Both the position numbers and the translations under genes were made by a program. From the IMG/VR virus record IMGVR_UViG_3300030376_006642, positions 1 to 43,329 of that record: DNA of 43,329 nucleotides; one strand, given 5' to 3'. The first letter of the stretch is position 1, and each line of letters opens with the position of its first letter. Shown here one piece after another: positions 478 through 43,329 of the stretch. The notes beneath the pieces were generated by a model that saw only the letters and a program-made list of their open reading frames with translations, was not told where the DNA came from and did no database searches. Origin of the DNA: a virus (Duplodnaviria; Caudoviricetes).

Positions 478-504
478 TAGGTATACATCTTTTTAGGTAT
501 ACTT
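478..504. repeat. Remote copy of the replication-origin iteron
   Basis: TAGGTATACATCTTTTTAGGTATACTT matches 35654-35680 TAGGTATCAATCTTTTTCGGTATACCT at 23/27 positions, same orientation. Confidence 0.7.
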
Positions 505-789
505 GGTTAACTGATACTTGGTGAGTTTTCGATGGTTTAGATAGAGACTACCCTACCCCTATAATAAGAATAAGGTTCGTCTCTAATCTGATACCTGGAG
601 CCGTTTCCTGATAAGATACAATCCTCAAGTATAGTTGGAATTGCGGATAGTTTTATTTATAATCTATACATTACAAGGCAACCTTTACTATCTTCGACAT
701 GGCTTCTCACTGTGCCTTAAACCCCTTTTAGTAGTGAGTTTTAAATCTAAGTGCTAAAAGTATCAAACCAACCCACTTAGATGTCAAGC
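503..789 (-). ncRNA. Large structured ncRNA candidate A (~290 nt, two pseudoknots)
   Basis: ORF-free. Helices 745-753/774-782, 706-711/733-738, 542-548/579-585, 550-561/565-576 (12 bp, 4 G.U only on minus), 613-618/689-694 and 619-628/635-643. Loop pairings 758-771 with 503-519 and 713-718 with 675-680. Confidence 0.7.
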
Positions 790-1675: not shown

Positions 1676-1826
1676 CGTGTTAGAGGGTATTTTACATGTA
1701 GGAGATAAAAGTTATGAACTTGAAGGTGATGTTCGTGACGTTATGGACGCTATGCTTGCAGAGGTAACATTCTTAGAAAACGTAATAGAACAAATACAAG
1801 GACCTATAGACCGAGAAAAAGTATGA
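1617..1826 (+). CDS. Hypothetical acidic protein
   Basis: 69 aa, AAGGAG upstream, ATGA overlap with terL. Confidence 0.6.
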   Translation: MMASLFAKLPAIREVEVNLDVLEGILHVGDKSYELEGDVRDVMDAMLAEVTFLENVIEQIQGPIDREKV

Positions 1827-3457
1827 TAAACTACGATTTAAGTCCTGAAGAAAAAAAAGATATAGTAAAACGGATGTATCTTGATGTATTTTTCTTTGCT
1901 AAAGTTATATTAGGCGACAAAAACTACCCAATGCACTACCATGTTCGTAGTAAAAGCCCTGCATTTCACAGGGAAGTTATAAATAACTTACTACATTTAA
2001 AAGAAGGGCAAAAAATGGCGATAGTTGCGCCTAGGGGACATGCAAAATCAACGCTTGTTTCGTTAATATACCCATTACATCGAATATTGTTTGCTGAAGA
2101 GCGATTTATATTATTAATATCAGAATCTGAAATGCAGTCTAAGTATTTGTTAGAAACAATAGGTGACGAAATAGAGTATAACGAAAAATTACAATTTTTC
2201 TTTGGTAAACGTATGGGCGACGTTTGGGGTAAAGAAGAAAAAGAAATTATAACAGAATTTAATCCAGATGGAAGTCCAGCAGCCTCATGTAAATTAATGG
2301 TTAGAGGTACTGGTCAAAAAGTTAGGGGTCTTAAGTATGGTGCTTATAGACCTACATTGACAATAATAGATGATGGTGAAGGTGACGGAAACGCACAAAC
2401 TCCAATGGCACGAGAAAAATTTAGACGGTGGATAGATACGTCAGTAGTACCTGGTTCTGATGACGGTAAAATAGTTTTTGTTGGTACAATTGTAGATGAA
2501 GACGCATATTTAAACACTGTAGCTGGCTCACGAGCCTTTAATGCCCATGGAGAAAAAAAGATTAAAGGATGGAAGTCATTATTTTACCAATCAATTTTAC
2601 AAGATACAGAAGCACATGAGTTTTTAGCTTCTGGAAAGGAAATTAAAGATGAAAATAACGAACCTAAAGTTCTTTGGGAAGACAGGCGTCCTTACAGCTG
2701 GCTATTGGAGCGGCGTGAGGAAGCGCAAGCAAAGGGAGATGTTGGATACTTTTTCCAAGAGTATCAAAATGTCCCAATGGATGACTCTTTTCGTGTCTTT
2801 AAGCGCGATGATGTGCAGTATTACGATGGTTATTATTCTCGTGATGGTGAGATTGACACTTTGGTTATTAGGGACGGTGAGTCGTCTCGTAGAGTTCCCG
2901 TTAATATTTTTATGGGAGTTGACCCTGCGTCTTCTGAGAACATTAAAGCGAACTATACAGTAATAATGATAGTGGCAGTCGATGCCGATTTCAATATTTA
3001 TATAGTTGACTACTTTAGAGGCCAAGTATCTCCAATGGATGGAGCAGATAAACTATTTGAACTAGCAGATATGTATAGACCTAAAGGTATTAACATTGAG
3101 GAAACAGGACATGTTATGTTAGCTGACTATGTTCAAAAGGTATCTAAAAAAACTGGAAGATACTTGAATATATCTCCAAAGAAAGCAATACAAAAAAAGT
3201 TTTACAGAATCAAATCAATGCAACCAATGTTTGCATCTAAGTCTGTATTTTTAAAAAATGACCAAACAGAGCTTCTGCAGGAGCTTTTAGGGTTTAAAGA
3301 ACATGCATTAACTACTAAAGATACACTTGATGCATTAAAATGGGCAACTGAAGATATTTTCTCTCCGCTATTAGAATATGACGATAGCGGAGAGTATTAT
3401 ATGCCAGATTCTACTCCTATGTGCGACTGGGAAACAGGGGAAATAATATACAACTAA
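1823..3457 (+). CDS. terL: Terminase large subunit
   Basis: Walker A APRGHAKST, Walker B TIIDDGE, motif III FVGT, FFQEYQN, RNase H-like nuclease MGVDPA and DTLDAL. Confidence 0.95.
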   Translation: MINYDLSPEEKKDIVKRMYLDVFFFAKVILGDKNYPMHYHVRSKSPAFHREVINNLLHLKEGQKMAIVAPRGHAKSTLVSLIYPLHRILFAEERFILLISESEMQSKYLLETIGDEIEYNEKLQFFFGKRMGDVWGKEEKEIITEFNPDGSPAASCKLMVRGTGQKVRGLKYGAYRPTLTIIDDGEGDGNAQTPMAREKFRRWIDTSVVPGSDDGKIVFVGTIVDEDAYLNTVAGSRAFNAHGEKKIKGWKSLFYQSILQDTEAHEFLASGKEIKDENNEPKVLWEDRRPYSWLLERREEAQAKGDVGYFFQEYQNVPMDDSFRVFKRDDVQYYDGYYSRDGEIDTLVIRDGESSRRVPVNIFMGVDPASSENIKANYTVIMIVAVDADFNIYIVDYFRGQVSPMDGADKLFELADMYRPKGINIEETGHVMLADYVQKVSKKTGRYLNISPKKAIQKKFYRIKSMQPMFASKSVFLKNDQTELLQELLGFKEHALTTKDTLDALKWATEDIFSPLLEYDDSGEYYMPDSTPMCDWETGEIIYN

Positions 3458-34979: not shown

Positions 34980-35209
34980 TTATTACTCCAGTATTTAGCT
35001 CTATAATAAGCTTTTATTTTATTGTCTTTTTTACGTTTAGGTCTTAATATTTTTTTACCATTTACATTAGTGTAAAAATCATTTTCATCCCAGTCGCATA
35101 CATAATGCGGAATAATGCCAATTGTATTAGGATTGTTGCAATTATGTATTTCTTCTATTGGTTGTAATAATATTAACAGCATAAAATAATAAGATACTAC
35201 AGTTATCAT
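34976..35209 (-). CDS. Hypothetical protein with hydrophobic N-terminus
   Basis: 77 aa, ATGA overlaps on both sides. Confidence 0.55.
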   Translation of the reverse strand: MITVVSYYFMLLILLQPIEEIHNCNNPNTIGIIPHYVCDWDENDFYTNVNGKKILRPKRKKDNKIKAYYRAKYWSNK

Positions 35210-35967
35210 TTAACAGCCTCTCTAAATTCTTCTATTGTTTTGTAATTAGTCCCCATTCTTTCGTTATATGCTTTAAGCTTTTCTAATTCTACTTCAGGAT
35301 TTTTATATTCTTCCTTAGCATCATCGTAGTTACCATCTAATACTTTGTCCATATTAGTTGGTGATAACACCCAGTCTATAGTTGCTCTCCAGTCAGAGGC
35401 CCTACCAGATAAAAAGTCGGATGATTTAACTCTTGCAAAATAGTCTTCCCAGAACGCGATATCTGGATTCTCTTTTACTCTTACCTTTAAGGACCTCAAT
35501 CTGGTGTTCCTAATAGAGTTAACCATAGGAACAGAGGAGTTCTTAAATATTTTATTCCATAATTCCATAATCTCATCAGATGCGATAGCATCTTTATTGT
35601 TATTAGTATTCTTTTTATTATTCTTTTTATTATTATGTTCAGGTTTTTCGGTATAGGTATCAATCTTTTTCGGTATACCTACATGCTTTTTTAAGTATAC
35701 CTTTCTCAGATTTCCTTTAGACCTATCAACACTTATCTGTATATACCCTCTTTTTACTAGTGATGATACCCATGATGATACAGTATTCTTATTAACATTA
35801 TATAGCTCAGAGAAGTAGCTATTAGAGGCCCAACAATACCCATGCTTACTGCATAGGGCTGTTAGTTCCGCATATAGCAACTTCTCAGATGAGCTAAGAT
35901 TAGCGTCATACCTCACATCAGAAGGTAAGATTGCATAGTACGAAGGTGTATTCATACTATTTTGCAT
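35206..35967 (-). CDS. Phage replication initiator (N-terminal winged HTH)
   Basis: YYAILPSDVRYD...EKLLYAEL...YCWASNSYF...LVKRGYI; N/K-rich linker; C-terminal FLSG...WRATIDWVL...KVLDGNY. Confidence 0.85.
   Translation of the reverse strand: MQNSMNTPSYYAILPSDVRYDANLSSSEKLLYAELTALCSKHGYCWASNSYFSELYNVNKNTVSSWVSSLVKRGYIQISVDRSKGNLRKVYLKKHVGIPKKIDTYTEKPEHNNKKNNKKNTNNNKDAIASDEIMELWNKIFKNSSVPMVNSIRNTRLRSLKVRVKENPDIAFWEDYFARVKSSDFLSGRASDWRATIDWVLSPTNMDKVLDGNYDDAKEEYKNPEVELEKLKAYNERMGTNYKTIEEFREAVK
35607..35702. repeat. Putative replication origin: three iterons at 22-bp period plus AT-rich repeats
   Basis: TTTTTCGGTATA at 35644 and 35666, TTTTTAAGTATA at 35688; adjacent TATTCTTTTTAT x2 (35607-35630); lies inside the initiator linker, as in lambda O. 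Confidence 0.75.
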
Positions 35968-42887: not shown

Positions 42888-42955
42888 TTCTTGGTATGGG
42901 ATTTGAACCCATTACAATATTTTGTATTTATCCGTATGCCCTATAAAACCAAGAA
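42888..42955 (-). ncRNA. tRNA-like perfect four-way-junction RNA (not a functional tRNA)
   Basis: UUCUUGGU / UUUAU-AGGGCAUACGG-AUAAA / UACAA-AAUA-UUGUA / AUGGG-UUCAAAU-CCCAU / ACCAAGAA; canonical T-loop, no 7-nt anticodon loop. Confidence 0.8.
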
Positions 42956-42960
42956 ATAAG

Positions 42961-43327
42961 AAATAGTCTCTGTTGTTCTTAACCCGTTCACCCCTAACAA
43001 ATCCGCCAAAGCGTCTTTGGTTTGTCTTAGTGTATTATTTTACACTAGCGGTATAACTCCGCAACGTGTCTAAGTGTCTGTAAAATTTCTTCCATCTTCG
43101 ACGCTGTAAGACGCCATAAGCAGTTAAAACTACCTTGCTACTAGAGAAACCGAATTATATTGAGAAAGCGTCTGTCTGTGTATGTATACCCTCGTAAAGA
43201 TATAACTTCGTTTTAAGTGTTGCTTGTCGGTCTTTGGACTTACTCAAGCATATATTAACTTACATTTAATATATTTTCTACTTATCCATAAAATCGCGTT
43301 GCCGTCTCTCAGTTCGGGACACTATCC
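42961..43327 (-). ncRNA. Large structured ncRNA candidate B (~367 nt)
   Basis: ORF-free; ends pair (GGAUAGU/ACUAUUU); about 9 further helices, G.U pairs favouring minus; long-range GCAACG/CGUUGC pseudoknot and GCGUC/GACGC loop-loop complement. Confidence 0.7.
43251..43327. repeat. Terminal direct repeat (right copy)
   Basis: Identical to 1-77. Confidence 0.95.
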
Positions 43328-43329
43328 CA

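Follow-up and report, generated by a model that had tools for sequence, protein, structure and literature searches.

A conserved multi-pseudoknot phage RNA with a lineage-variable two-armed repeat

The RNA gene among described systems

The nearest described counterpart of the RNA treated here is RF02932, an orphan Rfam motif without an assigned function, in which two kissing hairpins and a further helix, P3, form three pseudoknots within about 120 nt (a topology checked by eye on six members). The motif, Betaproteobacteria-1, was reportedly introduced by Weinberg et al. (2017). Among phage RNAs, the pRNA of phi29 combines pairing between loops with a fixed link to the packaging module. An analogue in the way of working is offered by ColE1 RNA II and the R-loop origins oriF and oriG of T4, where a segment of the folded transcript pairs with its own template strand; according to PMC4412123 the ColE1 RNA keeps a persistent hybrid through a stretch of rG paired with a dC stretch of its template. 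Meanwhile, reverse transcriptase (RT) systems such as UG27 copy ncRNA hairpins located between conserved motifs (10.64898/2026.09.22.753630), and several orphan phage RNAs form cages via kissing loops (10.64898/2026.07.01.735769).

The DNA analysed here, 43,329 nucleotides in all and referred to as the window, represents a near-complete phage genome. Its ends (1-78 and 43251-43329) overlap by about 78 bases, so that the record, classed as linear, has the appearance of a complete circle. The RNA gene, of a long type and about 280 nt in length, was mapped to positions 506-783 of the minus strand, with its ends placed by conservation (88 related sequences). In agreement with the earlier note, which had described an ORF-free stretch, no ORF of at least 60 aa was found to overlap 503-789 in a scan of the window, and the minus strand of this region, the one proposed to be folded, folds better than shuffled sequences (z -2.0, versus -0.08 for the plus strand). 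The folded minus-strand RNA is borne out by covariation as well, and comparison of sequences supports the view that 503-789 is a real, conserved, multi-pseudoknot non-coding RNA.

No match to the window RNA was obtained from Rfam either at the gathering thresholds or at E values up to 10, with the exception of two chance matches, nor did the Rfam models of known ribozyme families (group I/II, RNase P, hammerhead, HDV-like, twister) match the window or the homologue loci searched. ARAGORN found no tmRNA in the window or in 25 related loci. A tmRNA identity was also rejected on account of the spacing of the repeat described below, which shows no bias towards multiples of three, and of a T-loop-like element located at the 5' end of the RNA, unlike the T-arm of tmRNA, which stands directly before the 3' strand of the acceptor. 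BLASTN searches with the window RNA or the L486 copy against annotated phages, and with the L431 copy against plasmids, returned short chance matches or none. The RNA is not described in the literature searched, and the name Betaproteobacteria-1 is absent from the main text of PMC5737381; the supplements of bioRxiv papers and of PMC5737381, which lie outside that search, could list the RNA.

The RNA shares with phi29 pRNA the loop-loop pairing near packaging genes in the window, but it has no Rfam match and belongs to a family without a fixed terminase link. As in the RT-associated ncRNAs (DRT2, UG27, retrons), a structured scaffold and a hairpin bounded by short motifs are present; however, an RT is neither encoded in the window nor common to the carriers, and the RNA occurs as a single copy, whereas UG27 is an array. 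manA, ROOL and GOLLD, which form cages, are likewise optional, structured and protein-free phage RNA genes, but their fold is different and no Rfam match connects the window RNA with them.

A candidate promoter of the sigma-70 type was read by eye on the minus strand at 797-824 (TTGGAA 824-819, a spacer of 16 nt, TATAAA 802-797), but it is weak in the window and absent from the promoter-scan list. The leftward promoter that the earlier note placed just upstream of the RNA was not confirmed: the best minus-strand match of the scan (TTGACA 787-782, GATACT 764-759) would start transcription inside the first hairpin. In many homologues TTGCA or TTGAC together with a TA-rich -10 box is located just before this hairpin. 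The gene is likely to have its own promoter, and the RNA is very likely made.

The divergent neighbour of the RNA, given for context only, is a 276-aa plus-strand ORF at 845-1675, which has no PHROG or Pfam match and is a putative terS, named only by its position ahead of terL (1823-3457); portal and capsid genes follow. The minus strand of the window carries an initiator-type gene (35206-35967), exonucleases and a resolvase, and no convergent gene faces the RNA. Just 3' of the RNA, a G/C-rich hairpin (GGGGGAGC / GCUCCCCC) is located at 414-455 of the minus strand. A similar GGGGAG...GGCUCCCC hairpin directly follows the promoter in relatives without the RNA (L130, L044, L135, L136), hence the RNA sits between the promoter and a hairpin of the 414-455 type. 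Positions 341-395 contain a motif composed of a G run, TATATA and CCCACAGATTTTT, which lies upstream of terS in most relatives, RNA-bearing or not, and is a candidate packaging-start or terminus signal.

Before the first early gene lies another long tract poor in genes (42915-43329 and 1-200); the minus strand of 42915-43250 folds no better than shuffles (z -0.31) and gave no Rfam match. Six RNA-less terS relatives (L122, L123, L130, L044, L135, L136) have other long, hairpin-rich and apparently non-coding tracts on the minus strand, about 400-900 nt upstream of terS, and Rfam searches of four such tracts at E up to 1 yielded only a weak tRNA-like match (L123, 1182-1249). An isolated T-arm-like hairpin with a weak tmRNA-model score (16.3 bits) was seen on the minus strand of L142 at 484-500.

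Fold and covariation of the core

Marine phages, prophages and satellite-like elements together supplied the 88 sequences of the final set. By size these divide into a short type (about 235 nt) and long types (275-325 nt). Loci around relatives of terS and terL contributed 17 distinct RNA copies. When viral contigs were scanned for patterns, 107 and 57 matches were obtained, and an iterated HMM kept 65 distinct cores, with 44 pattern loci left without a match; a looser viral scan gave 43 matches, 7 of them real. Three of 120 matches in GTDB contigs were real, namely L431 and L462 (titled Pseudomonadota) and L486 (Gemmatimonadota). Run on three families, a covariance model had matches in 1, 3 and 1 of 151 genomes, counts that include the central genomes; L555 and L556 were gained in this way. 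With a pattern of the GC type, 29 viral matches were obtained, ten of them real by eye; applied to one order, the same pattern matched 5 of 401 genomes and none of the controls, and in a class-wide sample it matched 1 of 401, the centre alone. The covariance model scored 9 of 35 GC-type loci at E up to 0.01, and visual inspection of motifs and repeat led to the acceptance of L572, L580, L584, L591, L592 and L594.

The fold was tested on a 32-row alignment built without structure. RNAalifold found P1, P2 and P3 unaided, with changes on both sides in 16 of 19 pairs. In the seven-helix model 90.2% of the cells are paired, compared with 70.6% after shuffling and 36-48% in slid controls; 30 of the 40 pairs changed on both sides, and the covariation score is 0.517 versus 0.182 for shuffled alignments. 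The core runs, in order, P1 kissing P2 (K1), K2, P3 with RGKC(C)GAA, and K3, to which the long types add P5 and K4. It contains four pseudoknots, not the two listed in the earlier note.

Hairpin P1 (745-782, minus strand like all helices below; 782-774/753-745) is 98% paired, with changes on both sides in all 8 pairs, in accordance with the hairpin read earlier at 745-753/774-782. Three elements lie in its loop: UUGG, which is invariant, a 7-mer resembling a T-loop, and an inner helix, which is a canonical GCG/CGC in one subtype and whose 17:23 pair covaries. In the kissing helix K1 (727-758), positions 758-754 of the P1 loop pair with 731-727 of the P2 loop (100% paired; both partners have changed in 3 of the 7 pairs counted), and an invariant AAG GGG follows. 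P2 (706-738; 738-733/711-706) corresponds to the second hairpin of the earlier note, 706-711/733-738, and is 96.7% paired, 4 of 5 pairs having changed on both sides. The pseudoknot K2 (675-718; 718-713:680-675) is 75.6% paired in the unrefined alignment, shows changes on both sides in 5 of 5 pairs and was also found sequence by sequence. P3 (681-703; 703-701/683-681; 94.7% paired, both partners changed in all 3 pairs) encloses the conserved RGKC(C)GAA motif at 699-693. K3 (646-692; 692-687:651-646) has changes on both sides in all 6 pairs and is 84.7% paired, 13-14 short-type rows being gapped.

The insert of the long types (618-669), missing from the short type of about 235 nt, consists of P5 (644-638/624-618) and of K4, which joins 669-664 to 634-629 in the P5 loop; of the 23 long-type sequences tested, 20 have a K4 of at least 4 bp, its sequence varying among them, a count that carries no shuffle control. 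P5 matches the helix read earlier at 619-628/635-643, and the long arm noted at 539-589 is present as the 3' hairpin P6 (540-587). P6 is 76% paired and covaries weakly, with both-side changes in 1 of 6 outer pairs; AGGGG and GUCYCUAU are conserved, while the inner register varies. A GGGG:CUCC pairing in the manner of an alanine-type acceptor stem was rejected, as CUCC varies and GGGG is constant. In the GC-rich L566, L569, L570, L486, L555 and L582, the AGCGA before the first repeat copy has, by eye, two alternative partners, UCG just after that copy or UCGCU before the second copy, a possible folding switch.

The earlier note had expected two pseudoknots to covary. The loop knot with 675-680, i.e. 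K2, indeed does so. The other, between loop 758-771 and positions 503-519, can be paired in the window, but only 47.7% of its cells are paired over 32 homologues, and slides by +1 and +2 give 45-47%; the bases of this rejected knot are one copy of the direct repeat. Two of the nested helices proposed there gave way as well: 704-701:599-602 reaches 74 paired cells of 126, while its competitor 703-701:681-683 reaches 90 of 95, and 694-689:613-618 (129 of 192 cells) clashes with the covarying knot 692-687:651-646. Missed at that stage were the kissing helix 758-754:731-727, the knots 692-687:651-646 and 669-664:634-629, and the repeat 608-588/530-511.

Six RF02932 members above the Rfam cut-off share, as judged by eye, the order of the 5' core with the window-type RNA: P1 with its inner helix, a loop-loop kiss to P2, GGG after the kiss, K2, P3, GKCGAA and K3. 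All six have GGG after the kiss and GGCGAAG before K3, and the three-pseudoknot topology was found by eye in these members and by covariation in the window-type RNA. Hence the statement of the earlier note that the RNA belongs to no recognised family stood as regards Rfam and ARAGORN matches and the exclusion of tmRNA, RNase P and introns, but it has to be amended for the 5' core, which has the RF02932 topology.

In the RF02932 search itself, the best of 12 GC-rich homologue loci, L591, scored 27.2 bits (E 0.21), against a gathering cut-off of 49.4 bits; there was no match in the window at E up to 10 and none in five AT-rich homologue loci. A reciprocal search of two of the six RF02932 member loci with a covariance model of the phage RNA, filters off, gave a best E of 1, not at the RNA. 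The two-armed repeat exceeded shuffles in none of the six RF02932 members, an 8-nt word being below the reach of this test, versus 7 of 8 window-type RNAs, where it beats all 25 shuffles. The window-type RNA is also longer (230-320 nt versus a model of 120 positions), and it adds K4, in long types, and carries the GGCU-CC/UCA-CC repeat. Since the topology is shared but the score lies below the cut-off, the two member loci tried were not detected reciprocally and no two-armed repeat rose above shuffles in the six members, the RNA was not filed as a member of RF02932. It may best be regarded as a divergent variant of this orphan fold with an added 3' module; the two-armed repeat would be the new feature with respect to the RF02932 family.

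The two-armed repeat and its partner strand

The repeat consists of two copies, both on the minus strand. The guide-like copy 1 (588-608) is composed of an arm (608-603), GGCU (602-599), CC (598-597) and a second arm (596-588), and the target-like copy 2 (511-530) of an arm (530-525), UCA (524-522), CC (521-520) and a second arm (519-511). They are spaced by 77 nt around the 3' hairpin in the window and by 72-120 nt in the family, in which the form arm-GGCU-CC-arm for copy 1 and arm-UCA-CC-arm for copy 2 is general. The gap triplet of copy 2 is UCA in 20 and UCU in 5 of 28 lineages. All four pairs between the GGCU of copy 1 and the RGUC of the core (699-696) are possible in 22 of 28 lineages, with no covariation. 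A CA dinucleotide recurs in the distal arm. In L565 an incomplete duplicate of each copy's core stands directly before that copy (GGCUCC-AGU-GGCUCC and UUCACC-AGU-UCACC), perhaps the trace of a concerted duplication.

The arms are wholly different between lineages, yet both copies change together. Across 28 lineage representatives, 7.0 of 8 downstream-arm positions are identical between the copies, compared with 2.9 when copies are swapped between lineages, and 3.1 versus 1.4 of 4 positions in the upstream arm (permutation p 0.0002 in both cases; the lineages are related and not independent, so these p values are optimistic, and the register is off by one in two divergent rows). The differences that do occur are strongly polarised: 24 of 28 in the downstream arm have a G in copy 1 where copy 2 has an A, and both arms taken together, position +1 left out, contain 17 such sites and none of the reverse. 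The remaining differences are 3 U/C, 2 C/U and about 11-12 other mismatches. U/C differences are rare, being found at 3 of 73 C sites, versus G/A differences at 17 of 124 A sites (Fisher p 0.048).

The 17:0 polarity is what a tolerated wobble intermediate, G-T or G-U, would leave behind were copy 1 to pair with the strand complementary to copy 2; such pairing is, on balance, probable. Within the RNA, no region pairs better with its own than with another lineage's repeat (19 lineages, swap control); no conserved complement was found in the flanks, and elsewhere in the window only degenerate matches at chance level were seen. Pairing of the UUGG of the P1 loop with the CC of the repeat was rejected, since UUGG is constant even where both copies have CU, AU or AC instead of CC. 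The repeat is not explained by a coding frame or a ribosome hop either, as the spacing of 72-120 nt shows no bias towards multiples of three and some stop codons occur.

As both copies drift freely together, the simplest partner would be the gene in another copy, be it its template DNA strand, a cDNA or antisense RNA. The rarity of U/C differences, which are no commoner than C/U, leans weakly towards a DNA rather than an RNA partner. According to PMC3185426, T opposite an RNA G is a main mispair of RNA-DNA hybrids. Antisense RNA or cDNA would, however, give a similar G/A polarity. The thermodynamic order reportedly given by Sugimoto et al. in 2000 puts rG-dT over rU-dG.

The best explanation, tentatively adopted and somewhat less than an even bet, would be an RNA-DNA hybrid formed in cis at the gene's own 3' end and working like ColE1 RNA II. 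That the complement is the DNA template strand, bound in cis as RNA polymerase passes, comes close to an even chance. The 3' hairpin would bring copy 1 near its target, GGCU would be held by the RGUC of the core, and three template bases would stay unpaired beside the core; the local hybrid would open the duplex. DNA opening or priming for replication, as by ColE1 RNA II, is conceivable as the outcome but doubtful. The feature of the ColE1 RNA, a segment able to pair with the template further downstream, is present here on sequence evidence only. ColE1 has a fixed G stretch, whereas the corresponding segment here is lineage-variable, two-armed and 15-20 nt long; no likeness in sequence or fold was seen, and the analogy would be one of function. 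Replication priming, one of the roles suggested in the earlier note, would fit the repeat.

The G/A polarity also fits pairing of copy 1 with a cDNA of copy 2, as would be expected if a host reverse transcriptase took the RNA as its template or were decoyed by it, the cDNA of copy 2 being passed to copy 1 and the hairpin skipped or circularised. The copying of ncRNA hairpins between conserved motifs by the RT systems mentioned above agrees with such a scheme. However, the linked RT gene that goes with retron, DRT, UG27 and DGR RNAs was not seen: the 46 ORFs of the window contain no RT domain, none was found among the neighbour genes scanned with PHROGs, and comparison of 12 RNA-bearing records, including three partial contigs, gave no protein cluster shared by all. 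In addition, hairpin-less copies are missing from the parsed homologues, and the polarity would point the wrong way for repeated copying of the DRT2 kind. This scheme is considered distinctly improbable.

That no partner protein was found, and that the RNA is a stand-alone gene in many contexts, would suit a trans-acting protein decoy or an RNA-only assembly, with the two copies serving as binding or cleavage sites for one host protein; the cage-forming orphan phage RNAs and the CA dinucleotide of the distal arm speak for it too. Yet phages whose terS genes are close have entirely different repeats, a fast change for a protein site, and protein binding leaves the G/A polarity unexplained. A decoy or assembly of this kind thus appears unlikely.

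Genomic context and meaning

The position next to terS led the earlier note to propose a role in packaging or in the early-late switch. In the terS tree the RNA, divergent from terS, occurs in two distant clades (54 of 144 rows), which together with the loop-loop pairing would be compatible with a pRNA-like packaging RNA or a switch of the terminase operon. This proposal was not sustained: the remaining 90 of 144 terS relatives lack the RNA, and at least 15 copies are located away from terS, with homologues found beside cI, initiators and integrases. A packaging or switch role is accordingly rated as highly improbable. The RNA tracks the terS tree with three changes, which rules out recent hopping, and it behaves as an optional stand-alone gene rather than a part of the packaging module. 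Of the other positions, one lies head-on just after a CI-type repressor (L431, L555, L565, L569, L570), others near an integrase and a tRNA (L462, L556) or divergent from a small HTH gene (L359, L381, L392, L397), and three copies adjoin initiator-like genes (L486, L566, L584).

Many RNA copies end head-on with a convergent gene, which bears on a guide-bearing ribozyme, whose arms would bind a complementary strand, either DNA or a convergent antisense transcript, while the core would putatively cut or join at the three-base gap, as the hammerhead does between its two arms. The conserved 3-nt gap flanked by two arms (UCA 20, UCU 5 of 28) and the compact knotted core with invariant unpaired bases agree with this possibility. 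On the other hand, no ribozyme family matches, the window has no convergent gene, and cutting its own locus would need a benefit, none of which is evident; such a ribozyme is quite unlikely. A comparably low probability is given to its protein-free, RNA-guided version, in which the guide would invade its own DNA and the core would nick the template or cut the RNA into a primer at the three-base gap. If true, the ribozyme would be reprogrammable via two short arms, and the whole Betaproteobacteria-1 fold would gain a catalytic function.

The cis RNA-DNA hybrid is favoured by the fold, the repeat, its concerted change, the G/A polarity and the finding of no internal or protein partner in the records tested, as well as by the three copies that adjoin initiator-like genes. 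Against it stand the 90 of 144 terS relatives without the RNA, the 11 other arm mismatch sites and the GGCU:RGUC pairing that shows no covariation. The window encodes an initiator-type protein of its own and so may not need an RNA origin, and the five copies just after cI and the two near integrases do not occupy a typical origin position. One must also bear in mind that six RF02932 members have the core with no two-armed repeat above shuffles, hence the job of the core need not involve the repeat.

Large orphan RNAs are common in phages, and almost none of them has a function. Here a variable two-armed repeat evolves like a base-paired helix whose partner strand lies outside the RNA, which makes the function directly testable. 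If copy 1 pairs with the gene's own DNA, the RNA would be a self-targeting guide that uses no dedicated protein. Such a guide would span lytic marine phages, prophages and satellite-like elements and would offer a handle on the RF02932 fold; and if the core is catalytic, it would constitute a small programmable DNA- or RNA-cutting ribozyme.
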